From a virus (lineage: Duplodnaviria; Heunggongvirae; Uroviricota; Caudoviricetes), in IMG/VR virus record IMGVR_UViG_2700989400_000004, positions 6,939 to 70,938 of that record: 64,000 nt of DNA, one strand, 5' to 3'. The notes under the pieces are model-generated. The model had not been told where the DNA came from, did no database searches, and saw only the letters and a list, made by a program, of their open reading frames with translations. The position numbers and the translations under genes are program-made. This document shows positions 6,075 to 55,321 of this stretch, one piece after another (positions within the stretch are counted from its first letter, which is position 1; each line of letters begins with the position of its first letter).

Positions 6075-6983
6075 TTAACTTTGCAGATAGCCGCATTCTC
6101 GCCGGAATTGCGTGATTAATGACGCGGTCAGTGGTGTCTGGCGACTATCACGCCGCTGAATCAAATAATAGGCCGCTTTCGGTAAAATTTCGCTAACCGG
6201 CAACATCACCAGCCCCTGTCCGTGCAAGGGATCGCAGCCCATTTCTTCAGGCAGTATGCTGAGAAAATCGCTTTTTGCCACCAGACTGATACAGGCTGAG
6301 AACGTCTCGCAGACTACACCGACCTGTGGCGTTTGCGCCTGATCGTCAAGCAATTCACTCAACTGTTTGTAGTAGCTGCCGTGTGGCGTCGGCATTGTCC
6401 AGCTGTAATCCAGTAACTGTTTGATCGAACGGGCACCAATGGCGGGGTGTCCCGGGCGGCAAAAGATCGCGAATTGCTTTTCCAGTAATTTCTCAAAAGT
6501 AAATTCGTGGTCGTACGGTCCCTGATAATAGGTATTGATGGTGAAATCCAATTCTCCCTGACGCAATTCATTAATCATCGACACCAGTTGCCCTTCCATA
6601 ATGCGTACTTTTACCTGCGGATGCTGCTGATGAAAACGAGATATGACAGCTGGCATCAGACTGCGGGAAATACTGGCCCCCATGCCGATATTAATCTGCC
6701 CTGCCAGTTGCCCTTGTCGTTGGCGAATATCCTCTTGGGCTGCGCGCAGTTCTTCAAGAATAAGACTGGCGTGCTGATAAAAACTTTCACCGGCATCAGT
6801 TAACGTCACGCCTTTACTACGGCGAAAAAAGAGTTGCGCCGCTAATCCTTCTTCCAGCTCCTGAATAGATTTACTCAGTGCCGGTTGCGACATATTCAAC
6901 ATTCGGCTCGCTCCGCGAATGCTGCCCTGACGAGCCACTTCAACAAAAGCACGAATTTGATGAATTTTTACCTGAAAAGCCAT
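6075..6983 (-). CDS. abgR: LysR-family transcriptional regulator AbgR
   Basis: 302-aa ORF with N-terminal LysR HTH (…IRGASRMLNMSQPALSKSIQELE…) and substrate-binding domain; divergent from the abgA operon. Confidence 0.9.
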   Translation of the reverse strand: MAFQVKIHQIRAFVEVARQGSIRGASRMLNMSQPALSKSIQELEEGLAAQLFFRRSKGVTLTDAGESFYQHASLILEELRAAQEDIRQRQGQLAGQINIGMGASISRSLMPAVISRFHQQHPQVKVRIMEGQLVSMINELRQGELDFTINTYYQGPYDHEFTFEKLLEKQFAIFCRPGHPAIGARSIKQLLDYSWTMPTPHGSYYKQLSELLDDQAQTPQVGVVCETFSACISLVAKSDFLSILPEEMGCDPLHGQGLVMLPVSEILPKAAYYLIQRRDSRQTPLTASLITQFRRECGYLQS

Positions 6984-7158
6984 GACGCCACCGATAACCG
7001 TTATTTATCAGACCAAAGAAACTGGCATCTACTTTAATGCAGATGATTGTGTCAGGGTAATTTATGAACGGTTAAAACTGTGAAAAATCAGTTAGTGATA
7101 AGTAAAAACTATCGCTACGTGAACCGGGTCACACTTTTTACTGATGACGGGAAAGGTT

Positions 7159-8469
7159 ATGGAGTCTTTGAATCAATTTGTTAATTCGCTTGCCCCAAAA
7201 TTATCGCACTGGCGACGTGATTTTCATCACTATGCAGAGTCTGGCTGGGTGGAATTCCGCACTGCCACCCTTGTTGCGGAAGAATTGCAGCAGCTCGGCT
7301 ATTCACTGGCGCTGGGCCGCGAAGTAGTTAATGAAAGTAGCCGGATGGGACTACCTGATGAACTCACTCTACAACGCGAATTCGAGCGCGCTCGTCAACA
7401 GGGTGCGCTAGCACAATGGATTGCGGTTTTTGAAGGTGGTTTCACTGGTATCGTCGCCACCCTGGATACCGGTCGCCCCGGTCCGGTGATGGCTTTCCGT
7501 GTCGATATGGACGCGCTGGATCTCAGTGAAGAGCAGGATGTCAGCCATCGCCCCTACCGCGACGGTTTTGCGTCATGTAACGCCGGAATGATGCATGCCT
7601 GTGGTCATGATGGACATACCGCCATTGGGCTTGGGCTGGCGCATACCCTTAAACAATTCGAGTCCGGACTACATGGCGTCATCAAACTGATTTTTCAGCC
7701 TGCAGAGGAAGGTACGCGTGGCGCGCGGGCGATGGTCGATGCAGGTGTCGTAGATGATGTTGATTATTTTACTGCCGTGCACATTGGCACTGGCGTACCT
7801 GCGGGCACCGTGGTGTGCGGCAGTGATAATTTTATGGCAACCACCAAATTTGACGCGCACTTCACCGGTACCGCCGCTCACGCAGGCGCAAAACCAGAAG
7901 ACGGTCACAATGCCTTGTTGGCGGCAGCACAAGCCACTCTTGCACTGCATGCAATCGCCCCGCACAGCGAAGGAGCTTCCAGAGTAAACGTGGGCGTTAT
8001 GCAGGCAGGAAGCGGTCGTAACGTTGTTCCTGCCTCGGCGTTGCTGAAAGTGGAAACACGCGGGGCCAGCGACGTCATTAATCAATATGTTTTTGACCGT
8101 GCACAACAAGCGATTCAGGGCGCAGCAACCATGTATGGTGTCGGCGTTGAAACTCGTCTGATGGGTGCAGCTACCGCCAGTTCTCCTTCGCCGCAATGGG
8201 TCGCATGGTTGCAAAGTCAGGCGGCTCAGGTCGCGGGGGTCAATCAGGCCATTGAACGTGTTGAAGCGCCTGCGGGTTCCGAAGATGCCACATTAATGAT
8301 GGCCCGCGTGCAGCAACATCAAGGGCAAGCCTCCTACGTGGTGTTTGGCACACAGCTGGCGGCAGGTCATCACAACGAAAAATTCGATTTTGACGAGCAG
8401 GTTCTCGCTATTGCCGTCGAAACGCTGGCGCGCACCGCGCTCAATTTTCCCTGGACGCGAGGTATCTGA
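7159..8469 (+). CDS. abgA: p-aminobenzoyl-glutamate hydrolase subunit A (M20 peptidase family)
   Basis: Start at MESLNQFVNSLAPKL with GGGAAAGG SD; M20 metal-binding motifs (…MHACGHDGH…); stop overlaps abgB start. Confidence 0.9.
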   Translation: MESLNQFVNSLAPKLSHWRRDFHHYAESGWVEFRTATLVAEELQQLGYSLALGREVVNESSRMGLPDELTLQREFERARQQGALAQWIAVFEGGFTGIVATLDTGRPGPVMAFRVDMDALDLSEEQDVSHRPYRDGFASCNAGMMHACGHDGHTAIGLGLAHTLKQFESGLHGVIKLIFQPAEEGTRGARAMVDAGVVDDVDYFTAVHIGTGVPAGTVVCGSDNFMATTKFDAHFTGTAAHAGAKPEDGHNALLAAAQATLALHAIAPHSEGASRVNVGVMQAGSGRNVVPASALLKVETRGASDVINQYVFDRAQQAIQGAATMYGVGVETRLMGAATASSPSPQWVAWLQSQAAQVAGVNQAIERVEAPAGSEDATLMMARVQQHQGQASYVVFGTQLAAGHHNEKFDFDEQVLAIAVETLARTALNFPWTRGI

Positions 8470-9914
8470 TGCAGGAAATCTATCGTTTTATCGACGATGC
8501 GATTGAAGCCGATCGCCAACGTTATACCGATATTGCCGATCAAATCTGGGATCATCCAGAAACACGTTTTGAAGAGTTCTGGTCAGCGGAGCATCTGGCT
8601 TCGGCGCTGGAATCTGCAGGCTTCACCGTTACCCGCAACGTAGGCAATATCCCAAATGCCTTTATTGCTTCGTTTGGTCAAGGCAAACCGGTTATCGCCC
8701 TGCTGGGAGAATATGACGCCCTGGCAGGTTTAAGTCAGCAAGCAGGTTGCGCGCAACCTACATCCGTGACGCCCGGTGAAAATGGTCACGGTTGCGGACA
8801 CAATTTGCTGGGAACCGCCGCCTTTGCCGCTGCAATAGCCGTCAAGAAATGGCTGGAACAATATGGGCAAGGCGGCACAGTGCGCTTTTATGGTTGTCCT
8901 GGCGAAGAAGGCGGCTCGGGTAAAACGTTCATGGTCCGCGAGGGGGTATTTGATGATGTGGATGCGGCACTCACCTGGCACCCGGAAGCCTTTGCCGGTA
9001 TGTTCAATACACGCACGCTGGCAAACATTCAGGCATCATGGCGCTTTAAAGGGATCGCAGCACATGCCGCGAATTCCCCTCATTTGGGACGCAGCGCCCT
9101 TGATGCCGTAACGTTGATGACCACTGGCACCAACTTCCTCAACGAACATATTATTGAAAAAGCGCGCGTACACTATGCCATCACAGATAGCGGCGGGATC
9201 TCGCCCAACGTGGTCCAGGCGCAGGCAGAAGTGCTTTATCTTATCCGTGCCCCCGAAATGACCGACGTGCAGCATATTTATGATCGGGTCGCCAAAATCG
9301 CCGAATGTGCGGCATTGATGACCGAAACCACGGTTGAATGCCGCTTCGACAAAGCCTGTTCCAGTTATCTCCCGAATCGCACCTTAGAAAATGCCATGTA
9401 CCATGCCCTATCCCATTTTGGTACCCCGGAATGGAACTCCGAAGAACTGGCTTTTGCGAAACAAATTCAGGCTACGCTCACCCCCAACGATCGGCAAAAC
9501 AGTCTGAATAATATCGCCGCAACCGGTGGCGAAAACGGCAAGGTTTTTGCACTACGTCATCGTGAAACGGTACTGGCGAATGAGGTCGCTCCATATGCCG
9601 CCACCGATAACGTGCTTGCGGCATCGACTGATGTCGGCGACGTCAGTTGGAAACTGCCTGTTGCCCAGTGTTTCAGCCCCTGTTTTGCCGTCGGTACACC
9701 GCTACATACGTGGCAACTGGTTAGCCAGGGGCGAACATCTATTGCTCATAAAGGAATGCTGCTGGCGGCGAAAACTATGGCAGCAACCACAGTCAATCTC
9801 TTCATTGATTCAGGGCTATTGCAAGAATGCCAACAAGAGCATCAGCAAGTTACGGACACGCAACCGTATCACTGCCCTATCCCGAAAAACGTGACACCGT
9901 CACCTTTAAAATAA
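8469..9914 (+). CDS. abgB: p-aminobenzoyl-glutamate hydrolase subunit B (M20 peptidase family)
   Basis: 481-aa ORF with M20 signature (…GHGCGHNLLGT…), coupled to abgA. Confidence 0.9.
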   Translation: MQEIYRFIDDAIEADRQRYTDIADQIWDHPETRFEEFWSAEHLASALESAGFTVTRNVGNIPNAFIASFGQGKPVIALLGEYDALAGLSQQAGCAQPTSVTPGENGHGCGHNLLGTAAFAAAIAVKKWLEQYGQGGTVRFYGCPGEEGGSGKTFMVREGVFDDVDAALTWHPEAFAGMFNTRTLANIQASWRFKGIAAHAANSPHLGRSALDAVTLMTTGTNFLNEHIIEKARVHYAITDSGGISPNVVQAQAEVLYLIRAPEMTDVQHIYDRVAKIAECAALMTETTVECRFDKACSSYLPNRTLENAMYHALSHFGTPEWNSEELAFAKQIQATLTPNDRQNSLNNIAATGGENGKVFALRHRETVLANEVAPYAATDNVLAASTDVGDVSWKLPVAQCFSPCFAVGTPLHTWQLVSQGRTSIAHKGMLLAAKTMAATTVNLFIDSGLLQECQQEHQQVTDTQPYHCPIPKNVTPSPLK

Positions 9915-9950
9915 CAACAACAACGCAAACACAACAACCGAGGAATGCCC

Positions 9951-11396
9951 ATGAGTATGTCATCCATACCGTCGTCCTCCCAATCCGGGAAGCTCTATGG
10001 CTGGGTCGAAAGAATTGGTAACAAGGTTCCCCATCCTTTTTTGCTCTTTATCTATTTGATAATCGTACTCATGGTGACGACGGCAATTTTGTCAGCCTTT
10101 GGCGTCAGTGCGAAAAACCCGACCGATGGTACGCCGGTGGTGGTGAAAAACCTGCTCAGTGTGGAAGGATTACACTGGTTTTTACCCAATGTGATTAAAA
10201 ACTTTAGCGGTTTTGCTCCACTTGGAGCGATCCTGGCGCTGGTTTTAGGTGCCGGCCTAGCGGAGCGCGTCGGCTTACTGCCAGCGCTAATGGTTAAAAT
10301 GGCATCGCATGTTAATGCCCGCTACGCCAGTTATATGGTGCTGTTTATTGCTTTTTTCAGCCACATTTCTTCCGATGCGGCGTTAGTGATCATGCCACCG
10401 ATGGGTGCGCTGATTTTTCTGGCGGTGGGCAGGCATCCAGTTGCAGGTTTACTGGCTGCCATTGCAGGCGTAGGTTGCGGCTTTACGGCTAATTTACTGA
10501 TTGTCACAACCGACGTGTTGCTGTCGGGGATCAGCACGGAAGCGGCGGCTGCGTTCAATCCGCAAATGCACGTCAGTGTAATTGATAACTGGTATTTTAT
10601 GGCCAGCTCCGTAGTCGTACTGACGATTGTTGGCGGCCTGATAACCGACAAAATCATCGAGCCACGATTAGGTCAATGGCAGGGAAACAGCGATGAGAAA
10701 CTGCAGACATTGACCGAAAGTCAGCGTTTTGGTTTACGCATAGCAGGTGTCGTATCGCTACTTTTTATTGCTGCGATCGCGCTGATGGTGATCCCGGAAA
10801 ACGGGATATTGCGCGATCCGATTAATCACACCGTGATGCCATCACCCTTTATTAAAGGTATCGTGCCACTGATCATTCTTTTTTTCTTTGTTGTCTCGCT
10901 GGCTTATGGCATCGCTACCCGCACAATTCGACGTCAGGCGGATTTACCGCATTTAATGATTGAACCGATGAAAGAGATGGCGGGATTTATCGTGATGGTT
11001 TTTCCCCTCGCCCAATTTGTCGCCATGTTTAACTGGAGCAACATGGGGAAATTCATCGCCGTGGGGCTGACCGATATACTTGAAAGTTCAGGGCTTAGCG
11101 GCATCCCGGCGTTTGTCGGTCTGGCGTTGCTTTCCTCTTTCTTATGCATGTTTATTGCCAGCGGTTCCGCAATCTGGTCGATTCTGGCCCCCATTTTCGT
11201 ACCAATGTTTATGCTACTTGGCTTTCACCCGGCATTTGCGCAAATCCTCTTTCGTATTGCCGACTCATCCGTATTGCCTTTAGCGCCGGTATCTCCTTTT
11301 GTTCCACTGTTTCTTGGATTCCTGCAACGCTACAAACCAGACGCAAAACTGGGTACTTACTATTCGTTAGTCTTGCCCTATCCGCTTATCTTTTGA
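9951..11396 (+). CDS. abgT: p-aminobenzoyl-glutamate transporter AbgT
   Basis: Start MSMSSIPSS… with GAGGA SD; polytopic membrane protein; C-terminal end abuts the prophage boundary. Confidence 0.85.
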   Translation: MSMSSIPSSSQSGKLYGWVERIGNKVPHPFLLFIYLIIVLMVTTAILSAFGVSAKNPTDGTPVVVKNLLSVEGLHWFLPNVIKNFSGFAPLGAILALVLGAGLAERVGLLPALMVKMASHVNARYASYMVLFIAFFSHISSDAALVIMPPMGALIFLAVGRHPVAGLLAAIAGVGCGFTANLLIVTTDVLLSGISTEAAAAFNPQMHVSVIDNWYFMASSVVVLTIVGGLITDKIIEPRLGQWQGNSDEKLQTLTESQRFGLRIAGVVSLLFIAAIALMVIPENGILRDPINHTVMPSPFIKGIVPLIILFFFVVSLAYGIATRTIRRQADLPHLMIEPMKEMAGFIVMVFPLAQFVAMFNWSNMGKFIAVGLTDILESSGLSGIPAFVGLALLSSFLCMFIASGSAIWSILAPIFVPMFMLLGFHPAFAQILFRIADSSVLPLAPVSPFVPLFLGFLQRYKPDAKLGTYYSLVLPYPLIF

Positions 11397-11545: not shown

Positions 11546-13630
11546 TTACTCTTCGCTTCCGGTCAACTGCTTAACAAGCGCAACCAGTTCGCTTACCTGA
11601 TTTTCAAGCGCGGTAATGCGTGCATCTTGAGTAACTATGGCTATATCTTGATCCTTACATACTCTGACGAGATATCCAACGATGCCGGAGTAATTAACAC
11701 CCAAAACAATTTTTTCACCAGTAAGCACGGTGCCGTCACTTGTCGGTCCTGGCATCTCTTTTGTTATTGTTACTTCGCGAACTACTTGCGGCAATATCTT
11801 TTGCCATTCCTGTGCTATAACACCAGCGCACGCCCTATTATCACCAATAAAATTGAATGTATATCCGTTAACGTGCTGCAATAATTTTCTGGCCTCCTGT
11901 ATTTCCATAATATTTTCTTTTTCATTTATATCTGATGTTTGTGTTAATTCTGAGCAGGAGACTTTACCGGATGTGAAGATATCTGCGGTTGATGTTATTT
12001 TTTGTGAGAAGTTGGCTGTTGCTGTTACGTTCATTTTTCCAGCAAATACAGCGTTGGAGTCCGACTGAAGTTTTGTTTTTGCTCTTACTGTACCTGCGGT
12101 TATTGTTGTTGGCGATGATAACTGCTCCGCATAGGATTGCGCATTGGCTTCTGATTCTGCGGCTGCGGCTGCTGCTGCTGCTGCGTTTTCCGCTTCAGAT
12201 GTTGCGGTGGCGGCACGCTCTTCAGCCAGCACGCTGTAACCCTCTGCAGCGTCTCTCGCGGCTATGGCTTCATCCCGCGCGCTGGTCGCTGTGTTAGCGG
12301 CGCTGGTCGCGGCGGTCGCGGCACTGGTAATGGTAGCCGCCTGTTCAGTTGCAGTGGTTGCCTGCGCCACTGCTTCATCGCGGGCCGCTTCAGTGGCGGT
12401 CTGCGCGGTCTGTGCCGCTTCTGCGGCTTGGGTGGCGGCGGTTGCTTTTTGGGTTGCTGTATTTACGGCGGCTGATATCTTCGATTCGTCTATAGCAATA
12501 CTACTAGCGCTTGCTTCCGCTGCTTCTGCGGCGGTTTCTGCGTCGTTTTTATGCTCAAGCGCTGCGGCGGCGGCAGTGGTTGCCTCATTCGCTTTTTGGG
12601 TCGCTGTGTTAGCGGCGCTGGTCGCGGCGGTCGCGGCACTGGTAATGGTAGCCGCCTGTTCAGTTGCAGTGGTTGCCTGCGCCACTGCTTCATCGCGGGC
12701 CGCTTCAGTGGCGGTCTGCGCGGTCTGTGCCGCTTCTGCGGCTTGGGTGGCGGCGGTTGCTTTTGCTGCCAGTTCTTTTTCATCGATAGCGATATTAGCG
12801 GCGGTTGTTTCTGCTGCTGCGGCTGCGGCTTCGGATTTCTCCGCTTCTTCCTTCGCATACATGCGCAATTCATAAACAGCGGCACGATCTGCCGCTACGG
12901 CTTCGGCATCTGTATTGGCTGCTGCGGCGGCTTGGGTGGCGGCTGACGCCTGTTCAGTTGCTACTGTTGCTCGTTCAGTTGCGACGACTGCTCTCGCGGT
13001 AGCTTCGTCGCGTGCTGCTTCGGTAGCAGTCTGCGCGGTCTGTGCGGCGGTGGCGGCATTGGTGGCGGTAGTAGCTTGTTCGGTCGCTACGGTTGCCTGT
13101 GTGGCGGCGGTGGCGGCTTGTTCACCAGCCAGCACGCTGTAACCTTCTGCGGCATCTTTCGCGGCAATAGCTTCATGCCGCGCGGCGGCGGTTGTTTCAA
13201 CGTCTGCGGCGGTGGCGGCGGCGTTGGCGGTTGATTGCGCTGTTTCTGCCTGAATAGCGGTTAACAGTGCTTCTACCTGCGCGGCATCACCATAATTTTT
13301 CCAGTATTCAACGGCGGCATAGATCTCTGATTCCTGCCCGGTGAAATAGCGTAATGCTTCCGCTACGTCTTGCGCCAGCCCGTCAACTGAGATCGAATCG
13401 CACAGTAAAATACTGTAAGCAGTACCCGCCGGAATATCCGGTGATGCTGCCGGGGTTATAGATAATTCCGTTTCACTGACAATTTCAGTGATGGAAAAGA
13501 TCTGAATAGGGTCGCTTTTTACAATAACTGTGCACCCCACGCGGATCATGGATAAGGGTGCTTTAAAATTTGTACCCGTCCCGGTCAGCGTGTTACCGGA
13601 TACGGCAATACTTCCAATGGTGTAGATCAT
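11546..13630 (-). CDS. tail fibre protein with Ala/Thr-rich repeat rod
   Basis: 694-aa ORF; long A/T-rich internally duplicated segment; C-terminal globular domain (…GYTFNFIGDNRACAGVIAQEW…); last gene of tail module. Confidence 0.7.
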   Translation of the reverse strand: MIYTIGSIAVSGNTLTGTGTNFKAPLSMIRVGCTVIVKSDPIQIFSITEIVSETELSITPAASPDIPAGTAYSILLCDSISVDGLAQDVAEALRYFTGQESEIYAAVEYWKNYGDAAQVEALLTAIQAETAQSTANAAATAADVETTAAARHEAIAAKDAAEGYSVLAGEQAATAATQATVATEQATTATNAATAAQTAQTATEAARDEATARAVVATERATVATEQASAATQAAAAANTDAEAVAADRAAVYELRMYAKEEAEKSEAAAAAAETTAANIAIDEKELAAKATAATQAAEAAQTAQTATEAARDEAVAQATTATEQAATITSAATAATSAANTATQKANEATTAAAAALEHKNDAETAAEAAEASASSIAIDESKISAAVNTATQKATAATQAAEAAQTAQTATEAARDEAVAQATTATEQAATITSAATAATSAANTATSARDEAIAARDAAEGYSVLAEERAATATSEAENAAAAAAAAAESEANAQSYAEQLSSPTTITAGTVRAKTKLQSDSNAVFAGKMNVTATANFSQKITSTADIFTSGKVSCSELTQTSDINEKENIMEIQEARKLLQHVNGYTFNFIGDNRACAGVIAQEWQKILPQVVREVTITKEMPGPTSDGTVLTGEKIVLGVNYSGIVGYLVRVCKDQDIAIVTQDARITALENQVSELVALVKQLTGSEE
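12286..12449. repeat. direct repeat copy 1 inside tail-fibre gene (~164 bp)
   Basis: Near-identical to 12600-12763; encodes repeated …AAQTAQTATEAARDEAVAQATTATEQAATITSAATAATSAANTAT…. Confidence 0.6.
12600..12763. repeat. direct repeat copy 2 inside tail-fibre gene (~164 bp)
   Basis: Near-identical copy of 12286-12449, offset 314 bp in the same frame. Confidence 0.6.
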
Positions 13631-13663: not shown

Positions 13664-13678
13664 ATTCTACCATTTTGT
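13664..13678 (-). promoter_or_regulatory. conserved motif TTTTGTGATCTGYGT upstream of late gene (copy 1 of 3)
   Basis: Same 15-mer at 19964-19978 and (1 mismatch) 25932-25946, each under 50 nt upstream of a minus-strand start (tail fibre, L, tape measure). Confidence 0.35.
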
Positions 13679-13812
13679 GATCTGCGTTGCATTTTATGCT
13701 TGCACAAAATGTATTTATTGATTTATGCCAATACAATAAATCATTTACAGTGAATGTAACTTGCCACAATTTATGATGTAAATTATTGGCGTAAAAATAA
13801 AAACAATGCATA

Positions 13813-13836
13813 AAAACGGGGCTTATGCCCCGTTTT
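13813..13836. terminator. bidirectional intrinsic terminator after J
   Basis: Perfect hairpin CGGGGC-TTAT-GCCCCG flanked by T/A runs on both strands, immediately after the J stop. Confidence 0.5.
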
Positions 13837-13840
13837 ATTT

Positions 13841-19242: not shown

Positions 19243-19947
19243 TCACCCTACCTTGCTGGAACCAGGGAAACAGGCGATCGGTAGCGCTGCTGGACGCGGG
19301 AAACGTAAACGACAACCGCTTAGGCGGTGACTGCATCTATCTAAATTCAGATCATTGGTTGGTACATCCTTATCAGTAGCCACCGGACCGCCAGAATACA
19401 TACATCCATCGCCCCTATATTGCCATTGACAAACATCCGCCAGGATAGTCCGGCCTGGGATAATCGCTTTATCTGCGTCAATCGGCGTTGATAACTCATA
19501 CTGAACCTGATCTGCTGTTTCTTCTGCCATTGCTTCAATGACGTAAAAAGATACAGCCTCAATAGATGGATCTGCGTCTGGATTGCCGTTAGGGAAGTTA
19601 ACGGCGTCCAGGTATTTAACCTCCACCTGGCGGCGCGTAACCTTCATTCCTCTAAGGTCGTTGAAATCGTTATTCATCCCCGTAATGAGTCCGCCGATAT
19701 TGGCTACAGCCATTTGAGGACGTGAATAAACGCCCTCGTTTTTCATTTCGAAGCCAGTAGCCTCGATCGGGTAGCTGTTGTAAGTTAATCCCTTCCAGAT
19801 AACCGGGCCGTAATAGCCATTCGCGCCGGAATGGAAGCGGATAACCTCGCCACCCAGGGGCGACAAGTCCAGTTCGAACAAGTCAATCACCGCGCCCACA
19901 CCAGCGTCCACGGAATCAATAATCATCTCTGTAGGTATATTGCGCAT
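19243..19947 (-). CDS. L: minor tail protein (lambda L-like)
   Basis: C-terminal Cys motif (…CQWQYRGDGC…CSHRLSGC…) as in lambda L; ATG at 19947 with GAAGGTGAG SD. Confidence 0.7.
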   Translation of the reverse strand: MRNIPTEMIIDSVDAGVGAVIDLFELDLSPLGGEVIRFHSGANGYYGPVIWKGLTYNSYPIEATGFEMKNEGVYSRPQMAVANIGGLITGMNNDFNDLRGMKVTRRQVEVKYLDAVNFPNGNPDADPSIEAVSFYVIEAMAEETADQVQYELSTPIDADKAIIPGRTILADVCQWQYRGDGCMYSGGPVATDKDVPTNDLNLDRCSHRLSGCRLRFPRPAALPIACFPGSSKVG

Positions 19948-20076
19948 TTTCTCACCTTCTGATTTTGTGATCTGCGTCACGCTAAATCATACCAAAATGG
20001 ATTGATCGCGGTTTATACAATATGTATATTTTACTCAAACGGAAGCACAGTTAACAAAATGGCGCGGAGGTGTGAG

Positions 20077-20232
20077 ATGGCTGATAAGGTGTGGAGGTTG
20101 AAGGTATTCCTGTCAGGTGGCAGGGAAATGACTGTAGCTCTGTATAAAGACGAAGGCGAGGCACTGACTGACGCGCTATTACTCACTGAAGACGAACGCG
20201 TTTTGGGGTACAGAATCGAACCTGTCAAATGA
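20077..20232 (+). CDS. hypothetical protein (moron, 51 aa)
   Basis: Opposite strand to tail operon; GGAGGTG SD 6 nt before ATG. Confidence 0.4.
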   Translation: MADKVWRLKVFLSGGREMTVALYKDEGEALTDALLLTEDERVLGYRIEPVK

Positions 20233-20244
20233 GAGGTTAACGAA

Positions 20245-20592
20245 ATGCAAAAATATAGTCTTGATGTGTGGTTAAGTGGTTGCAAGGAGTGTTTCGGATT
20301 ATTTGATAGCGAAGAGGCAGCTTTGGAAGAAGGAAGGATTCTTGAATGTAGTTTAGGCCATCCAGTGAAATATGCCGCTAATCCGGTGCAGATAATTGAT
20401 GAGGTGGAAAACATGAACCCGAAAGATATTAACTTTAACGTCAATGTTGAATTTGCTGATTCTATGGATCAGTCTTGCCCTGGTGAAATACACGTAAAAG
20501 GTTTCCCGGCAGACGACATGAAAGCGAAACATGAATACGAAAAAGCGGCGAAAGATTTCTGCATCGACAATCTGAGCGCGTTTAATAAATAA
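20245..20592 (+). CDS. hypothetical protein (moron, 115 aa)
   Basis: GAGAGG SD; protein-like translation. Confidence 0.45.
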   Translation: MQKYSLDVWLSGCKECFGLFDSEEAALEEGRILECSLGHPVKYAANPVQIIDEVENMNPKDINFNVNVEFADSMDQSCPGEIHVKGFPADDMKAKHEYEKAAKDFCIDNLSAFNK

Positions 20593-20601
20593 GGCGGCAA
20601 T

Positions 20602-20850
20602 ATGGCGCGGCGTAATCACGGGGATTATGTGTACACGTTGAAACAAGCCGCCCGCCTTATTGGCTATCATGAGCATGAATTTATTGATTTGCTGATTGAG
20701 CGCGGGATTCTGTACCAGGTTTGTTTAACGTTGTACCCAAAAGCTAAATACCTACAGGAAAAATTATTCATCATCATGACGGATGAAAACCAAGTTAATC
20801 ATTCATTCGTCACTGACAGGGGCGTTAATTATCTGCGTGATAACTTATAG
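20602..20850 (+). CDS. hypothetical protein, possible HTH (moron, 82 aa)
   Basis: AAGG SD; helix-turn-helix-like stretch YTLKQAARLIGYHEHEFIDLLIERGIL. Confidence 0.45.
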   Translation: MARRNHGDYVYTLKQAARLIGYHEHEFIDLLIERGILYQVCLTLYPKAKYLQEKLFIIMTDENQVNHSFVTDRGVNYLRDNL

Positions 20851-20859
20851 GCGGTAATT

Positions 20860-20931
20860 ATGGATGAAGTAATCGAAAATGTTTTGGTAGTGGCTGGCGC
20901 GATTGCCATCGTTTATGCCTTTCTGAATTAA
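20860..20931 (+). CDS. micro-protein, single hydrophobic helix (23 aa)
   Basis: MDEVIENVLVVAGAIAIVYAFLN; AGGCGG SD. Confidence 0.3.
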   Translation: MDEVIENVLVVAGAIAIVYAFLN

Positions 20932-20942
20932 TGGGGTGAATC

Positions 20943-21080
20943 ATGAAAATTGAAGTTTTAGCACTAATAGCAATGGGCTTGATAGTATTTGGCGTGCACG
21001 CTGCGGATTGGGACTGGTGCGCAATAGCTGAGAACATGGCGCACGCTCACCCAATAGGCTTGATGCACATGAACTTCTAA
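20943..21080 (+). CDS. small exported or membrane-anchored His-rich peptide (45 aa)
   Basis: MKIEVLALIAMGLIVFGVHA / ADWDWCAIAENMAHAHPIGLMHMNF: signal-peptide-like N-terminus with VHA-A site; GGGGTGA SD. Confidence 0.4.
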   Translation: MKIEVLALIAMGLIVFGVHAADWDWCAIAENMAHAHPIGLMHMNF

Positions 21081-21084
21081 CACG

Positions 21085-21110
21085 AAAAACCCCGCTTCGG
21101 CGGGGTGTTA
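21085..21110. terminator. intrinsic terminator (UUCG tetraloop hairpin)
   Basis: CCCCGC-TTCG-GCGGGG; T-run on minus side, A-run on plus side. Confidence 0.45.
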
Positions 21111-21124
21111 TAGGTAGGTGAGAC

Positions 21125-21301
21125 ATGAAAGAAGGTGTGACTTATCAGCATGTGTATACATTTGAAATTTACCGCATATGTGATGGTTATGTTGAAGAGT
21201 ATAAAATCTTCCCCCGTGGATACTGGAAGAGAGTTAAGATTTCTGTAAGGTTATTAAAGAAAATGTTTAAAAGAGGATTAATTCAAGAAATTGATTTTTA
21301 G
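21125..21301 (+). CDS. hypothetical protein (moron, 58 aa)
   Basis: AGGTGAGA SD; basic C-terminal half. Confidence 0.4.
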   Translation: MKEGVTYQHVYTFEIYRICDGYVEEYKIFPRGYWKRVKISVRLLKKMFKRGLIQEIDF

Positions 21302-21308
21302 TAAACAA

Positions 21309-21337
21309 TAAGGGGGTTACCCCCCTTATTGTTTTAT
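21309..21337 (+). terminator. intrinsic terminator ending plus-strand moron island
   Basis: AGGGGG-TTA-CCCCC hairpin followed by ttattgttttatttg. Confidence 0.45.
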
Positions 21338-21617
21338 TTGTCGTGACGACTTTCTATTTCATAGATGATCGCCATTCCTACCGCGATAATAAATACCATT
21401 ACCAAGCCATCAACCAGCATATTAAACGCCCTCAATCAAGAATAAATATTCCTTCCCTTCGTAAGATCTGCATCCCACATACCCGTCGCCGTAGTCATGC
21501 AGATACCAGGTGTTCCCCTTATCACTCACCACTGTGAGATTATCGATCTGGTAGTCTTCGAATAGCGTAAATGATTCATCGCCAGTCTTAACGCACATCC
21601 CGTACATATTGCCCCCT

Positions 21618-21971
21618 TTAATTCATCACTTGCTCAAACATCGCGGTTAGCGTGAATACGGGGCCATCCTTCGTCATGTTCCATTTTCGGCAGACAAAAA
21701 GCCTTTGCACTCCATCCATCGACGGCGACCAGTAAAACGCCTCGACCGCGCCGCGCGCCCGTAAAAACGCCTCCGCCTGGATCGCTGGATTGCCAGCGTC
21801 ACCGCATCCGGCGCTCGACCCCTTAAAAACCACGCTGTAATCGTCGAGCAAGGGATTAATCCCTTTAACCTGGCGTTGCTCATAGCCATCACCCAGCTTG
21901 ACGACCGACACGTTCGGCTCCCTGGTTACGCTGTAGCTACGCTGCGGCGTCCAGGTAAACACTTCCGGCAT
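21618..21971 (-). CDS. M: minor tail protein (lambda M-like)
   Basis: 117 aa; conserved …LGDGYEQRQVKGIN… and C-terminal …FEQVMN as in M-family proteins. Confidence 0.7.
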   Translation of the reverse strand: MPEVFTWTPQRSYSVTREPNVSVVKLGDGYEQRQVKGINPLLDDYSVVFKGSSAGCGDAGNPAIQAEAFLRARGAVEAFYWSPSMDGVQRLFVCRKWNMTKDGPVFTLTAMFEQVMN

Positions 21972-22030: not shown

Positions 22031-22140
22031 GAACTTCATCACAAGAATTATAACCAGTTTACAAAATGGCTTCACACAGGACGCAACAAGATGTATACAG
22101 AAAGCAAGAAGAAAAGCAGTACCAACAAAGGAGGCCCAAG

Positions 22141-22308
22141 ATGAAACGCAACGATAAACACTACGCGGTCGTAATGCTTAATAACGCATTTGAACAAGTA
22201 GAAGTGGCGATCGTTAAAGGCTTTGATGATGCATTCAAAATGGGCCAGTTCTACATGAACGTGAAGGAAAACGAATACCGGGATTTCTACCTGAAAGCGG
22301 TCAACTAA
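22141..22308 (+). CDS. hypothetical protein (moron, 55 aa)
   Basis: Strong AGGAGG SD 8 nt before ATG at 22141. Confidence 0.4.
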   Translation: MKRNDKHYAVVMLNNAFEQVEVAIVKGFDDAFKMGQFYMNVKENEYRDFYLKAVN

Positions 22309-22325
22309 GGATGATGGGGTGAGCT

Positions 22326-22580
22326 ATGAAACTGGTAGCGATTGATAAAAATTTGAAGGTACAGAAAAACGCGCAGGACCGGATCATCAAAAAGGGTAAG
22401 GCTTTATTAAATGCTTTCCTGAAAAAAGAAGCTCACCCCAAAAAGTTACGCGATGGTTACGGTTATAAATTTGATATCAACCCCGATTGGCGGTTATTCA
22501 GCGATGATTTGAAGGTGTGGTTAATTATCGAGCATCATTATTATAATGTTAAATGTGGGGTTAAGGGGGCGCATAAATGA
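22326..22580 (+). CDS. hypothetical protein (moron, 84 aa)
   Basis: GGGGTGAG SD; lysine-rich protein-like ORF. Confidence 0.45.
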   Translation: MKLVAIDKNLKVQKNAQDRIIKKGKALLNAFLKKEAHPKKLRDGYGYKFDINPDWRLFSDDLKVWLIIEHHYYNVKCGVKGAHK

Positions 22581-22814
22581 GATGGCGTGAATTACATAGC
22601 TACGGCATCCGGTTTTCCCTGGTTGTCCTGAAAGATTGGTTTAATCGCCAGGTGGCAAACGATGCGTTAATCCCGTTTGCTGATAACAAGCCTTATAAGC
22701 GCGATGGGGTGAGATATGGAAGATGATAAATTTACATGGCGGGAGATCTGGAATATTTGGCAGGTAATTTTCGGAAGGGGATATATTGCGCGGAATGGTC
22801 GATTGTAGAGGTAA

Positions 22815-22997
22815 ATGATGATTATTCATGAAACGGAAGAATGTCGGCGGATTAATCTTAGTATTGAGTATGACGAAAGATTATGGCTTGAAAGCGACTG
22901 CGAAATAATCGTAATAGACAAAAAGCAAGCCGCCGAACTGATAAGCGCATTACAGCTTTATGTAAACAACGAATTTAAAAATGACGAAGTTGAATAA
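22815..22997 (+). CDS. hypothetical acidic protein (moron, 60 aa)
   Basis: GAGGT SD; followed by terminator. Confidence 0.4.
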   Translation: MMIIHETEECRRINLSIEYDERLWLESDCEIIVIDKKQAAELISALQLYVNNEFKNDEVE

Positions 22998-23003
22998 AGA
23001 AAA

Positions 23004-23040
23004 CCCCCAGCTTTCGCCGGGGGTATTATTTTATTTTTTG
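23004..23040. terminator. bidirectional terminator between moron island and tape-measure gene
   Basis: CCCCC…GGGGG hairpin followed by tattattttattttttg. Confidence 0.4.
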
Positions 23041-25916: not shown

Positions 25917-26046
25917 AGCGTTGATCTCCGTTTTTGTGATCTGTGTAACTATTTTATACAAAATGGCTTTGCTTTAACGACTCCATTTTGTATAAAGAAG
26001 CCATAGGGAATAGGTAGTTAAACAAACAAGTTAAGTGGGGTGGGTT

Positions 26047-26229
26047 ATGAACGTATACGAAGCCATCAGAAATATTAGAAATATCGAGAAAAATGTAGGT
26101 AACGAGGCGGCGCAAGAAGAATGCAAAATGTACATGAAGAAGCTACCACGCCGTGAACAATTTGTTTTGGGTGGCCCTAGCCTAGCGATGGAATTCGCAA
26201 GATTAAGAAAAGAAATGCTCAATAACTAA
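26047..26229 (+). CDS. hypothetical protein (moron, 60 aa)
   Basis: GTGGGGTGG SD; charged helical peptide upstream of lipoprotein gene. Confidence 0.4.
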   Translation: MNVYEAIRNIRNIEKNVGNEAAQEECKMYMKKLPRREQFVLGGPSLAMEFARLRKEMLNN

Positions 26230-26247
26230 TATTTAACTGGGTGAAAC

Positions 26248-26985
26248 ATGAAAAACGTAATTAAAGCGGCTCTTATTGGTGTTATGGCTTTCGGTCTTGT
26301 AGGTTGCGCACCTTCATATTCAGAGCAAGTAAAAGCAATAGAAAAAGGCGTGCTAATGCTGGATAAAACGGGGGTTAACAAGGATGCATGGAAAGTAAAA
26401 GCAGATGATTATGTCGCCGATTGCAACAACCTTAAGAGATACAAAGGAAAAACAGGTGAAACCGCCGTACTATTATGCGAACTAATCATCAAAGAAGATG
26501 AACTAACAGAAAGCGGACTATATACAAGCGCGGCTAACCTCGGCGTCGATATAGCGGGCCTTTATGATGTACTAAGTAATAAAAATTCAGCCGCTGCATT
26601 ATCAGCCGAACGTGTAGCAAAACTTGTGATAAGTGCTAATAAGTCAGCATTTCGCAATAGACAACAAGTTATAGAAAATGAATGCCGCGGCTTTATGGAT
26701 AAAAACTTTAAAGGCTGGAGTGAGTTAAACCCTATAGATGACGAAATTTATAATAATTGCCGGAATGCCGCAATGTTCTCTGATGAAAGCAAAAACAGAA
26801 TGGGGAGCATAATTTCTACAACGCTCGCATATAGAGTAAGACACCTCGATCAAAAAACAAAAACAAATGTATTAACTAACGCATTCATAGCAGTTCAGGC
26901 AGGCTGGAGTATAGGGAATGGATATCACGCCGTAAAACCGACTCCGGCAGAACTACAAGCGATTGCGCTACGCGATGCAAAGTGA
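26248..26985 (+). CDS. lipoprotein (moron, 245 aa)
   Basis: Signal peptide plus lipobox MKNVIKAALIGVMAFGLVGC; GGGTGA SD; opposite strand to tail operon; followed by strong terminator. Confidence 0.6.
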   Translation: MKNVIKAALIGVMAFGLVGCAPSYSEQVKAIEKGVLMLDKTGVNKDAWKVKADDYVADCNNLKRYKGKTGETAVLLCELIIKEDELTESGLYTSAANLGVDIAGLYDVLSNKNSAAALSAERVAKLVISANKSAFRNRQQVIENECRGFMDKNFKGWSELNPIDDEIYNNCRNAAMFSDESKNRMGSIISTTLAYRVRHLDQKTKTNVLTNAFIAVQAGWSIGNGYHAVKPTPAELQAIALRDAK

Positions 26986-46689: not shown

Positions 46690-46852
46690 AATTTGATCTC
46701 CTTCTGTTAGGCGATGTGTTTCCGCATTTCAGCGGGGCCGGATTTTTAAAGAGCATTTCGTTTGATTGCAGTATACAAAATGGATGCACCTGGACAAAGT
46801 AAAAAGCGCCATTATGTGACGCTAATCACACAATGACGCCATTTTGTAAACT

Positions 46853-50658: not shown

Positions 50659-52617
50659 TCAACCAGCAAGCCAGGATTAAATCAATCAGCCACATGATTA
50701 AGCCTCCATAACCGCGTAATCGAAGCGCCCTAAATACATCTCGATGCCGATCATCTCGACGCCCTGGACGTCCGCGCCCCATACAGTTACGTGATAAGCG
50801 TCCTCCCGCCATTGTTCATGGCTTAGCACTTCGTTTGCTGGATATTTCCGCCCCGCGACGTAAGCGCCCGGACCTACGCCACCTTCTACGCAATACAGCA
50901 TGATCTGGTTTTCCATATCGCACCTCGTTAATAGCAAACTGCGTACATACAGATCCCGTTGTTAAAGGCTTTGATGATCATGTCGATGACCATGTAAACG
51001 AGCATTACAGCCGCCGCTGGGACAAGGATCGCGAATAGTCCGCCTAACGTGCGCTCAATAATGAAATGCGGGTTTACTTTGCTTTTGTGGTTACGTTCAA
51101 AGTTTGTCATCTTCCCGCCCTCCGTGCTGTATACCTTTCGACTTCAGTTTACAAAACGGATACAGCGGGACAATACAAAATGTATATTTATGTGATCGGT
51201 ATCACGCGATTAATGCAGTACACGTTTTTCCGGGTGAGGCATTGGCTGTGCACGTTTCCGCGCTTCATTCAGCACTGACGCCACCGCCCGGACGCCAAAA
51301 TCATTAGCCCGCATATCATTGCCGACCATCTCGCCATAAATAAGCGGCATAAATTGCCTTGCGTTATCCTCGATGTGTCCATTTTCAACCGCTTTCTGAA
51401 GTACGCCAGCCTCAAGGATATCGCGCATCAGTTCACGGATTGTATATAATGAAGCACTACCCATCGCCCCTTCGCCCAGCGGGACAATCACCGCGCTACC
51501 ATATGCAAGCGGATCCAGTTCTTCCGGTACTGGTACACGTCCAAAATCTTCTTCCATGCGTTTTACGAAAGTAAGGCAGAAGACGTAACGCGCTACCGAT
51601 GTTTTCTCTTCCGCATTCAAAGATACGTAATCGCGCATTGACGCATCCATTACAAGATCAGCAATTTGTAGCGCCAGGTTTAAATCCCCGTCATACACGC
51701 CCGCGTCCATATCTTTAATGACTTCGTGGTAGTTCTTTGTTTCCACTTCATGAAAACATGCGTCCTCTGTGTAGCGAGTGATTAACATGCCTTCGCTGCC
51801 AAGTGAATAAGCTGTTTTGATGTCGTTCATGATATTTATCCTTATAACGGGTGATGCCATCGCATTTCAGTTTCTGAATTAAACGGGATACCTTCGCTTG
51901 AAAGGAATAAATCACGCTCCCGTTTCAGTTCTTCCGGGCTTATTTCTATTTCATCAATCTGACCGAACGATCCCGGCATCATTCTTTTTAAATCAGATAG
52001 CGGACGCATAAGGCCGCAACCGCGTAACAGCATATCGACCGCGAATTGTCTACGTCCGGCGGCGTCATTAAAGCGCCGTGCCCAGGGCACAACCACGATC
52101 CGGCGTTCGAATTCGATAAATAGTGATAGCTTGTTTGTTTCGCTATCATATGCTTTATGGAATTTAATTTTCATTTAACACCTCGACGTATTGCTCAAGA
52201 TGCCATTTACCCACCTCGTCGTCTTCTTCATCAAATAATGTTACTTGACCCCCTGGCCCGAAAGAAAAGGCAGCGACAATAAATTTATAGCCATACCACG
52301 TGCGGATCTTTTCGCCGCCTTTCAGGTCTTTAACTTTCACTAATTTTATAGCCATACGCCAAACATCCCATTCAATCCGGCGAACAACTGCCGCCAGTGG
52401 TCTTCAACATAAGCCCGGAAAGGCTTAACGCGAACATTGCGGGCCTTCAGCGTGATACTGTCAAAATAACGCGGCTCGATCAGCGTACCATCAAGGTATT
52501 GAACGAGGATCGGGCGCTCAAAGTCGCTACATGTTTTATTCAGCACGACCAGACCGGGGTCACTACGATATGCGGGCAAAACAACGAGATCACCCGCCTT
52601 TGCATCCCATAACATCA

Positions 52618-54883: not shown

Positions 54884-55321
54884 AATCTTTTCTCCTTAGT
54901 TAAAATCATGTTTGCTACATTTCAGTAGCGACCAGATTGTTAAAGAGAATGGCTTAACATCGTTCAACTAATCCCGCAATCATCGCCGTTTCCGGTGTGA
55001 CACCACTCAATCCAAGTGATCTGACTCGTCGCCTTGCGTGCGGTTTCGTGGGGGATGTAACGCTTTAAACACCCCATGCGCCTTGTTATCAGTGCCGCTT
55101 TCGGTCCCACATCGGGGAGTTACTCCACGGTTGACAAGGTGTTAAGCCTGATTTTTAAAGTGCCTGGAAGGTGTTTTTGTTTCCTGTCTCCTTCCTTTGA
55201 CTCGCAATATACGCCCTGTGATATGTCGAGTCAATCCATTTTGTATACTTTTTTAAAATATTTTCTATCTCATTGATATTTAAATGATAAAACCCGTTCT
55301 CGGTTTACATTTTGGTGCTTT

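Follow-up and report, generated by a model that had tools for sequence, protein, structure and literature searches.

A proposed plus-strand accessory operon with a stand-alone KilAC/ANT gene between the tail genes L and M of mEpimmI prophages

Our analysis of a 64,000-nt stretch of viral DNA (hereafter the window) suggests that positions 19948-21340 constitute a self-contained plus-strand accessory operon, which is fixed in the mEpimmI phage family, would encode a host-acting protein (ORF3) and has a distal zone where small genes are swapped; we put the probability of this reading at roughly 0.6. Six plus-strand ORFs of 51, 115, 82, 23, 45 and 58 aa are set against the minus-strand tail genes, all present at the sizes given in the original prediction, which had interpreted them as a moron island.

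The window represents a prophage of E. coli that belongs to the mEpimmI (mEp021-like) family, already described in the literature. It is integrated at abgT, a published att site (PMC11893012) that the prophage abuts. The region is 83-94% identical to mEp021, mEp013, mEp515, mEp010, mEp554, mEp044, MagusPhagus and 35 E. coli prophages, every one of which has the same layout (L, plus-strand genes, M), and is matched by E. coli GCA_001420135.1 at 100% identity across 6177 nt. The features of the locus are:

19243..19947, minus strand: tail gene L (Pfam Phage_tail_L, 3.6e-68)
19966..19981: CRP-like dyad TGTGATCTGCGTCACG (TGTGA-N6-TCAC), half-sites invariant and spacer variable in 41 distinct relatives
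19992..20030, plus strand: predicted sigma-70 island promoter, comprising CCAAAATGG (UP-like or activator element), a -35 and a -10
20002-20007 and 20025-20030, plus strand: the predicted -35 (TTGATC) and -10 (TATATT) of this promoter, with a 17-nt spacer; scan score 9 of 12
20014..20033: palindrome TATACAATATGTATA / TACAATAT-GT-ATATTGTA over the -10, invariant in relatives; candidate operator
20077..20232, plus strand: ORF1, 51 aa, acidic, phrog_29559; in 55/56 loci
20245..20592, plus strand: ORF2, 115 aa, phrog_38567; in 56/56 loci
20602..20850, plus strand: ORF3, 82 aa, stand-alone KilAC/ANT domain, winged-HTH-like
20860..20931, plus strand: ORF4, 23-aa hydrophobic peptide of variable presence; in about 20 loci
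20943..21080, plus strand: ORF5, 45 aa, N-terminal signal/TM segment; in 41 loci
21089..21106: hairpin T1 (CCCCGC-UUCG-GCGGGG), 7-bp GC stem and UUCG loop, -14.8 kcal/mol
21112..21339, plus strand: ORF6 cassette (Shine-Dalgarno sequence, ORF6 and its own hairpin T2) with exact indel boundaries
21125-21301, plus strand: ORF6, 58 aa, basic, 31% GC
21303-21334, plus strand: hairpin T2 with U-run, 14-bp stem, -22.6 kcal/mol, z -4.9
21337-21420, minus strand: 28-aa membrane (TM) ORF between the island and M
21422-21607, minus strand: 61-aa gene between the island and M, phrog_3249
21618-21971, minus strand: tail gene M (Pfam Phage_min_tail, 2.9e-28)

The proposed site between L and M holds in that both genes have Pfam matches and lie on the minus strand, with L starting at the ATG at 19947 as in its 234-aa relatives, but two small minus-strand genes separate the island from M. 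The start assigned to the island, 20002, is merely the TTG start of the longest frame, ORF1 itself beginning at 20077. A purine-rich Shine-Dalgarno sequence is found 5-9 nt before each ORF, as had been claimed, strong for ORF1, ORF2, ORF5 and ORF6 and weak (AGGCGG) for ORF3 and ORF4. The two hairpins that were said to bracket the island are both real by folding, but they enclose ORF6 only.

A presence matrix of the island genes across 50-56 loci reveals that ORF1-3 occupy the L/M slot in 55-56 of the 56 related mEpimmI loci, while the presence of ORF4, ORF5 and other tiny genes varies among them. Nowhere among these 56 loci does L lie directly next to M; the comparison with related prophages lacking the insert, suggested along with the original prediction, accordingly finds no insert-free member. 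The pN/pS values against relatives (0.29 for ORF1, 0.20 for ORF2, 0.07 for ORF3, 0.09 for ORF4 and 0.21 for ORF5) point to purifying selection on ORF1-5, which are thus not mere chance frames; ORF6 shows just two substitutions among its relatives, too few for such an estimate. Given that ORF1-3 are fixed across the family and strongly conserved, the greater part of the island does not count as recently acquired, and the polymorphic cargo consists of ORF4, ORF5 and ORF6 only. The presence data show ORF1-3 to be an ancient family core, of which ORF3, by its domain profile, is the stand-alone KilAC/ANT winged-helix protein.

The same locus is found in mEp021 as gp71-gp74 (GenBank MH706966), where gp74 corresponds to ORF1 (82%), gp73 to ORF2 (68%) and gp71, labeled a 'putative antirepressor', to ORF3 (99% identical). 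This phage shares the bidirectional terminator and has a second plus-strand island between M and the tape-measure gene; it differs in that a further gene, gp72 (75 aa), separates ORF2 from ORF3, in lacking ORF4 and ORF6, and in that its ORF5 homologue is unannotated. ORF4, ORF5 and the 28-aa ORF are mostly unannotated in general. The antisense islands go undiscussed in the mEpimmI paper, whose figure shows 16 virion proteins and whose supplement has nothing on gp71-74 (PMC11893012).

Conservation of this kind raises the question of whether the core genes, in spite of their opposite orientation, serve in tail assembly or as structural accessory genes. The original prediction had named conserved tail-assembly genes as the finding that would speak against inserted cargo, and the genes are indeed conserved, ORF1-3 keeping their position between two tail genes across the 56 loci, but nothing points to tail assembly. 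They converge on the late operon from a separate predicted promoter, ORF3 is a KilAC regulatory domain, and PHROGs places none of them in its tail category (their families, phrog_29559, phrog_38567 and phrog_5689, have unknown functions). Furthermore, in lambda L directly follows M, and lambda-type tails assemble without any gene between the two. We consider a tail function extremely unlikely.

The distal part of the island is of a different character. ORF4 and ORF5 are predicted membrane peptides, the former reaching a Kyte-Doolittle value of 2.78 over 15 residues. ORF5 had been described as a signal-bearing, His-rich peptide; it does have a hydrophobic, signal-like N-terminus, but its His-rich tail is confined to one subfamily and is missing in a 38-aa subfamily, so a role in metal response is not a conserved feature. 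In 13 loci an unrelated 24-aa TM peptide takes the place of ORF5. ORF6 is present in only 7 loci, forms a single 90% cluster among 5.8e9 proteins that always occurs at the L/M slot, and retrieves only close relatives in a word-index search; it is an orphan. The boundaries of its cassette are exact relative to loci L002, L004, L024 and L049, and by this comparison the cassette is inserted between the ancestral bidirectional hairpin T1 and its plus-strand T-tract. In relatives T1 is a bidirectional terminator; in the window it retains an intact U-run on the minus strand only, and hence would end the transcription of M/gp70 rather than that of the island. As the plus-strand U-tract has been displaced by the insertion, read-through at T1 is expected. 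T1 lies only 14 nt before the ORF6 start codon, leaving no room for an ORF6 promoter.

These features bear directly on the moron interpretation. The term moron (Juhala and Hendrix) denotes an autonomous unit of promoter, gene and terminator that has entered between two genes lying side by side in related phages. The island resembles such units in lying between genes adjacent in lambda, in its opposite orientation, in its predicted promoter and terminators, and in a composition unlike that of its flanks (42% GC, and 31% in ORF6, versus 50% in L, 56% in M and 47% in the prophage), and to this extent the description as inserted cargo stands. However, the whole island is absent only when lambda is the comparison; by absence from the junction in relatives ORF6 (found in 7 loci), ORF4 (about 20) and ORF5 (41) qualify, and ORF1-3, fixed in 55-56 of 56 loci, do not. 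The ORF6 cassette, at 31% GC, is cleanly inserted and has its own terminator but, unlike a moron, it is promoterless and depends on read-through. A classic moron, namely recent, prophage-expressed cargo that benefits the fitness of the lysogen, for example by phage exclusion or a metal response through small membrane and His-rich peptides, would account for the orientation, the GC content, the predicted promoter and terminators and the polymorphism of ORF4, ORF5 and ORF6. It sits poorly with the fixed and strongly conserved three-gene core, with the absence of the His-rich tail from the 38-aa subfamily and the replacement of ORF5 in 13 loci, with the lack of an ORF6 promoter, and with searches of the island proteins against PADLOC, Pfam and NCBIfam, which yielded KilAC only and no exclusion, defence, toxin or antitoxin match; we regard it as unlikely. 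Overall, the island is a moron-like accessory operon of an ordinary kind, in a phage family that has been described before. An Rfam scan returned hairpin noise only.

The best characterized product of this accessory operon is ORF3. It matches Pfam PF03374 with 27.6 bits (cutoff 25.3), residues 10-82 aligning with profile positions 23-105 of 108, and the precomputed PF03374 assignment covers 6/7 ORF3 homologue clusters. Its predicted fold is a MerR/excisionase (Xis)-like winged helix, in agreement with the earlier suggestion of a possible HTH protein. ORF3 is conserved to the same degree as the tail genes, and a KilAC-like protein is among the manually identified core genes of the mEpimmI family (PMC11893012). 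Its identity to multi-domain antirepressors is low (31-37%); a PDB sequence search had no match, a profile search against one genome per species gave a single spurious partial match, and a word-index search recovered close relatives only. The TxKG motif common to CreP and P1 KilA (bioRxiv 10.1101/2024.01.05.574328) is seen in ORF3 as T71-D72-K/R73-G74, of which T, D and G do not vary. What has been published on KilAC domains is suggestive of a host target: the KilAC domain of AriS blocks SOS by itself (PMC9043618), the KilA-C domain of Phi11 Gp07 inhibits growth (PMC5944126), and CreP, a stand-alone KilAC protein, causes filamentation and bacteriostasis in E. coli (bioRxiv 10.1101/2024.01.05.574328). 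ORF3 resembles the KilAC proteins CreP, AriS, Phi11 Gp07 and P1 KilA in its TxKG motif and in a PF03374 score above the gathering threshold; it is phage-borne and, like CreP, a small single domain. However, its 82 aa fall short of the 103 aa of CreP (A. baylyi) and the roughly 115 aa of the AriS domain (Listeria phi10403S), and its operon lies in the tail region, not the immunity or early region. The likeness to CreP, AriS and Gp07 is one of domain profile, motif and published descriptions.

Upstream of ORF3, separated by gaps of 9-12 nt (ORF1/ORF2 and ORF2/ORF3), lie two acidic proteins (pI 4.9 for ORF1 and 4.5 for ORF2). ORF2 combines a variable β-β-α-β N-terminal domain with a highly conserved C-terminal domain containing the invariant residues C78, H83 and C106. 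ORF1 is a paralogue of the ORF2 N-terminal domain, to which it aligns with a BLASTP E of 1e-3 and an hhalign probability of 72% (E 3e-5). Neither ORF1 nor ORF2 gave an informative homologue or fold match, and an exhaustive profile search with the ORF2 family found family members only; by these searches both are family-restricted orphans. Homologues of ORF1 are wrongly annotated as 'transporter'.

The L-ORF1 spacer is a further conserved element, its median nucleotide identity among relatives being 92.0% compared with 84.7% for L and 79.9% for M; TGTGAT, TCAC, TTGAT and TATATT are invariant. A generic promoter scan of the region found 7 sites against 7.8 in shuffled sequence, that is, no excess, and the case for the promoter accordingly rests on conservation. 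The CRP-like dyad matches TGTGA-N6-TCACA at 9/10 core positions, and the window contains 5 copies of the TGTGA-N6-TCAC pattern where 0.27 would be expected. The center of the dyad is placed about 62-63 bp before the predicted start site (-62.5/-63.5), and the distance between dyad and -35 shows 1-bp variation among relatives. Set beside Class I CRP promoters of the lac type, whose canonical site is at -61.5, the island has the 9/10 core match, conservation of the half-sites only, a site roughly one promoter length upstream and an A-rich element between this site and the -35. From the CRP-like center to the start of the -10 the distance is 50.5-51.5 in this island (island 1), 60.5 and 48.5 in two sister islands (islands 2 and 3), and 49.5 in lac. 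The palindrome over the -10 has only one other copy in the window, a weak one at 51174.

The island promoter belongs to a class that recurs in the prophage: the ACAAAATGG-N24-TATA composite has 5 copies in the window against 0.14 expected, and one of these stands at the head of each of the three antisense islands, a fourth at a promoter that faces the tape-measure gene and the fifth at the early promoter by the repressor gene. A separate motif, TACAAAATGG, was considered as a plain -10 element and rejected, in that it fits some copies whereas others immediately precede ribosome-binding sites. The early leftward promoter, which neighbors the repressor gene, has several features in common with the island promoter: CAAAATGGATTGA, the spacing of 24 nt and the -10 TATATT recur in both, the sequence downstream is similar, and 13 bases are identical. 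Given this likeness, the island promoter could be repressor-controlled and silent in lysogens. Cell-division inhibitors, such as lambda Kil, are typically early phage functions. Together these points raise the possibility of an early-lytic host takeover, in which a CI-like repressor silences the island in the lysogen, the island fires after infection or induction in the manner of lambda pL with kil and gam, and converging late transcription would then shut it off. However, the sequence between the -35 and -10 of the early promoter and its flanking palindromes (TTGACTCG...CGAGTCAA) are not found at the island, and the CRP-like site and the toxin-antitoxin-like neighbor fit host physiological control, leaving this scenario doubtful.

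That neighbor is island 2, headed by a promoter of the island 1 type and encoding a ParE_like toxin downstream of a 51-55 aa gene. It invites comparison with a toxin-antitoxin-like addiction or abortive-infection module, in which ORF3 would be the toxin, ORF1 and/or ORF2 would restrain it, and the complex would regulate its own synthesis via the palindrome. Consistent with this, stand-alone CreP is toxic in E. coli, ORF1 and ORF2 are small, acidic and closely spaced upstream of ORF3, and the invariant palindrome overlaps the -10. Yet three genes in a row are not the canonical two-gene layout, the profile searches gave no toxin-antitoxin or defence match, an unrelated gene replaces ORF1 in one locus (L046), and the toxicity of ORF3 and its binding by ORF1 or ORF2 are suppositions. 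Kinship of ORF1 with the first gene of island 2 was also considered and rejected (hhalign probability 0.2%). Such a module is, in our view, improbable.

A bolder proposal would unite the three islands, through the ACAAAATGG-N24-TATA composite and the CRP-like sites, in one regulon tied to host carbon status, with the KilAC protein of island 1 damping RecA/SOS. The mEpimmI family is reported to be largely UV-non-inducible, and its repressor has a LexA-like S24 cleavage domain; damping of RecA/SOS by ORF3 would explain why most of these prophages are not UV-inducible in spite of that domain. The CRP-like sites are weaker at the sister islands, reading TGAGA in island 2 and with the left half-site TGTGATC alone conserved in island 3, which weakens the CRP reading for the latter. 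We deem this combined reading very unlikely.

Under the accessory-operon reading that we favor, transcription would start near 20037 at the predicted, conserved sigma-70 promoter TTGATC-17-TATATT, which is accompanied by an upstream ACAAAATGG-type element, by the CRP-like site (likewise upstream, at about 62 bp) and by the palindrome that covers the -10. The transcript would run through the tightly packed ORF1 to ORF5 and, in the window, read through T1 into ORF6 and stop at T2. As the operon converges on the late operon, its expression is expected while the late genes are silent, namely in the lysogen and/or shortly after infection. By analogy with the published KilAC proteins, ORF3 may act on the host, either by damping RecA/SOS or by blocking cell division, and the acidic ORF1 and ORF2, which have one small domain in common, could be its partners or modulators. 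The distal part would be a zone in which tiny membrane peptides and orphan genes are exchanged, with ORF6, a gene-plus-terminator cassette of foreign composition, as probably its newest arrival.

These findings tidy the annotation of a family of prophages often found in E. coli of the human gut, and indicate that the mEpimmI tail operon is regularly broken by antisense units of one promoter design. The ORF6 cassette provides a clean, datable case of a gene plus terminator landing within an existing terminator. The stand-alone KilAC protein, with its universal conservation, offers the most useful lead; its domain has recently been tied to SOS inhibition and division block.

Between the minus-strand tail genes L and M lie six plus-strand ORFs of the sizes originally predicted, each preceded by an SD (weak, AGGCGG, at ORF3 and ORF4) and with intergenic gaps of 9-12 nt from ORF1 to ORF5.

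19243-19947, minus strand, tail gene L (Pfam Phage_tail_L, 3.6e-68)
20077-20232, plus strand, ORF1, 51 aa
20245-20592, plus strand, ORF2, 115 aa
20602-20850, plus strand, ORF3, 82 aa
20860-20931, plus strand, ORF4, 23 aa
20943-21080, plus strand, ORF5, 45 aa
21089-21106, hairpin T1, 7-bp GC stem, UUCG loop, -14.8 kcal/mol
21125-21301, plus strand, ORF6, 58 aa
21303-21334, hairpin T2, 14-bp stem, -22.6 kcal/mol, matched by no shuffle
21337-21420, minus strand, 28-aa hydrophobic ORF (MLVDGLVMVFIIAVGMAIIYEIESRHDK) with a GAGGG SD, after the 61-aa gene
21422-21607, minus strand, 61-aa gene between the island and M, phrog_3249
21618-21971, minus strand, tail gene M (Phage_min_tail, 2.9e-28)

The 28-aa ORF is carried on a segment of ~100 bp found only in a window-like subset of relatives.

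Megablast assigns the region to the group of mEp021, together with mEp013, mEp515, mEp010, mEp554, mEp044, MagusPhagus and prophages found in 35 out of 5426 complete E. coli genomes. The window matches E. coli assembly GCA_001420135.1 with 100% identity across 6177 nt. The group is the mEpimmI family, which was described in 2025 from 48 genomes; it has a CI-like repressor and N-like antitermination, is mostly not UV-inducible, and counts abgT among its reported integration loci (PMC11893012). In the window abgT adjoins the prophage: the host genes abgR, abgA, abgB and abgT occupy 6075-11396 (AbgT Pfam 2.6e-197) and end at ~11.4 kb, and the first prophage gene encodes a 694-aa tail fibre bearing a Peptidase_S74 chaperone domain (11546-13630). 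The prophage therefore occupies abgT, an attachment site already reported in this family. Annotated relatives all share one layout: minus-strand J, I, K and L, a plus-strand block, M on the minus strand, another plus-strand block and then the tape-measure gene, again on the minus strand. GenBank entries for mEp021 (gp71-74) and for many prophages already include the island genes; the publication on the family (PMC11893012) does not deal with the islands.

Scoring of the six island proteins by tblastn in 56 related loci, with clustering of all ORFs in the L-M gap, separates a core from a variable distal end. ORF1 is present in 55 of the 56 loci (38-98% amino acid identity), and ORF2 (55-96%) and ORF3 (89-99%) in all of them; the island is not a recent insertion of six genes. 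An ORF5-type peptide, in a 45-aa or 38-aa form, occurs in 41 loci, its place being taken in 13 others by an unrelated 24-aa hydrophobic peptide; ORF4 is found in ~20 loci and ORF6 in 7. The gap, 1197 to 1892 bp long across these loci, may also hold a 67-aa gene (10 loci), a 77-aa gene (mEp021 gp72; 5 loci) or an HNH endonuclease gene (1 locus). The pN/pS ratios, from summed Nei-Gojobori counts against distinct relatives, are 0.29, 0.20, 0.07, 0.09 and 0.21 for ORF1 to ORF5, and therefore all five are protein-coding, including the 23-aa ORF4. The L-M island (island 1) is best regarded as an ancient accessory operon shared by the whole family, moron-like in build and hyper-variable at its distal end. 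A role of its products in tail assembly is unlikely.

The two terminator hairpins are real; they do not bracket the island as originally thought, since ORF6 alone lies between them. The U-run of T1 serves the minus strand and that of T2 the plus strand. Relatives without ORF6, 94-96% identical on both sides, read GCGGGGTGTTA joined directly to TTTTATTTGTCG, a single hairpin with an A-run before it and a T-run after it, which is a bidirectional terminator common to the island and the M segment. Alignment with these relatives places a 228-bp insertion (about 21112-21339) exactly at that junction. The insert contains ORF6 with its SD and a second hairpin, longer than the first, for which the original T-tract now serves. 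After insertion the plus-strand tail of T1 (UGUUAU) and the minus-strand tail of T2 are weak, and therefore transcription of the island should read through into ORF6, and antisense transcription should enter it from the M side. The cassette has a GC content of 31-33% against 47% for the prophage, and ORF6 forms one 90%-identity cluster among 5.8 billion proteins, with members all from E. coli and always in this slot. Because ORF6 shows only two substitutions among its relatives, its coding status rests on the strong SD and the cassette structure.

The 129-bp spacer between L and ORF1 has a median nucleotide identity of 92.0%, against 84.7% for L and 79.9% for M. Across 41 distinct sequences, its conserved elements are a TGTGAT and TCAC pair around a variable spacer (19966-19981; 9 of 10 core positions of a CRP-type dyad, and the pattern expected of such a site), CCAAAA(T/C)GG, a TTGAT at the putative -35, TACAATATGTATATT, which holds the -10 TATATT and a palindrome, and a near-invariant leader element GTTAACAAAATGG, replaced by GTCAACAAAATGG in a few loci. 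A generic promoter scan by itself is not significant in this region, and hence the argument for a promoter rests on conservation.

A composite element, ACAAAATGG-N24-TATA, has five copies in the window (0.14 expected), a number that none of 100 shuffles reached.

19992-20028, plus strand, upstream of island 1
22061-22097, plus strand, upstream of island 2 (22141-22997)
25958-25994, plus strand, upstream of island 3 (26047-26985)
25955-25991, minus strand, promoter facing the tape-measure gene
55208-55244, minus strand, early leftward promoter beside the repressor gene (55358-56005; HTH_3 plus Peptidase_S24)

This looks like a phage-specific promoter class, in which ACAAAATGG, at about -45 to -37, would occupy the position of a proximal UP element or a class II activator site. 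An early-lytic operon, suggested by the resemblance of the island 1 promoter to the early promoter, is a less likely reading.

Island 2, between M and the tape-measure gene (plus strand, 22141-22997; terminator 23003-23024), encodes proteins of 55, 84, 49 and 60 aa, the 84-aa one belonging to the ParE_like toxin family (PF24732 in identical relatives), and probably combines a TA pair with cargo; in relatives this position holds HNH endonuclease genes. Island 3, upstream of the tape-measure gene (plus strand, 26047-26985), comprises genes for 60 and 245 aa that lack Pfam hits; in relatives, the gene after the conserved island 3 promoter region is named "type VI secretion system-associated protein TagO" by PGAP. 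The regulatory region of island 3 is a near-perfect divergent promoter palindrome (ACAAAATGG-N16-CCATTTTGT). At island 2 a TGAGA-N6-TCACA is conserved, lying one helical turn farther upstream than the site of island 1, and at island 3 conservation is limited to the TGTGATC half of the CRP-like dyad. CRP control would be a reasonable hypothesis for island 1 and a weaker one for islands 2 and 3.

Several other motifs recur in the window. TACAAAATGG has 21 copies at up to one mismatch (6.6 expected), concentrated in intergenic regions on both strands (for example at 13670, 20053, 21989, 22060, 25957, 25983, 46774, 46839, 51150, 51174, 54583, 55236, 56079, 59086 and 60224), some of them preceding a -35 and others standing immediately before ribosome-binding sites. 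Positions 13668-13690, 19958-19980 and 25927-25949 hold a 23-nt direct repeat, TTTTGTGATCTGyGT..AC, which contains GATC. On the minus strand it lies 3 to about 50 nt upstream of the SD of three genes with which the late operon resumes after being interrupted: the fibre gene, L and the tape-measure gene. The repeat might act as a CRP-like site, be sensitive to Dam or signal a restart. At 13700-13840 (plus strand) a promoter-like module built like those of the islands precedes a strong bidirectional terminator (13814-13835) by ~90 nt, and the interval contains no ORF. This marks a candidate for a short plus-strand RNA immediately downstream of J; Rfam gave no hit. Two more TGTGA-N6-TCAC dyads, each adjoining TACAAAATG motifs, lie in regulatory spacers upstream of NinG (46815-46830, the perfect palindrome TGTGACGCTAATCACA) and of a 60-aa gene (51191-51205).

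Among the island 1 products, ORF3 is the sole recognizable effector, a stand-alone KilAC domain without the N-terminal domains usual in KilAC fusions (Bro-N, Rha, AntA/B, KilA-N). In Listeria AriS the KilAC domain by itself is enough to block the SOS response, probably by acting at RecA (PMC9043618); the 103-aa stand-alone KilAC protein CreP is bacteriostatic and causes filamentation in E. coli, with FtsZ co-precipitating (bioRxiv 10.1101/2024.01.05.574328); and in Phi11 Gp07 the KilA-C domain is growth-inhibitory (PMC5944126). By analogy, ORF3 most likely acts on the host via SOS/RecA or cell division. A TA-like module with KilAC as toxin and the palindrome as operator is rather unlikely. ORF1 is paralogous to residues 1-50 of ORF2 (BLASTP E 1e-3; hhalign 72%, E 3e-5), and these acidic paralogues may be partners of ORF3. 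In the model of ORF2 the N-terminal beta-beta-alpha-beta domain is confident and the C-terminal domain poorly modelled, with low AlphaFold confidence; this latter domain (residues 60-115) is almost invariant in the family (ADSMDQSCPGEIHxxGFPADD...EYEKAAKDFCIDN), and the invariant residues C78, H83 and C106 within it may form a metal site. Fold and sequence searches found no relative of ORF2 outside the family. ORF4 and ORF5 are hydrophobic (Kyte-Doolittle over 15 residues, 2.8 and 2.5), and the 38-aa subfamily of ORF5 lacks the His-rich tail; lysogenic conversion by these membrane peptides, as originally predicted, is rather unlikely. Public records of relatives, mEp021 (L001) and L004-L007 among them, have annotation problems: RefSeq gives ORF1 homologues a "transporter" name lacking profile support, the GenBank record of mEp021 leaves out the ORF5 homologue, and ORF4 is annotated nowhere.

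Because island 1 converges on the late operon, we would expect this accessory operon to be transcribed while late transcription is silent. More speculatively, their common promoter design may link the three antisense islands, and the stand-alone KilAC protein, conserved throughout the family, may be connected with the lack of UV induction reported for these phages.
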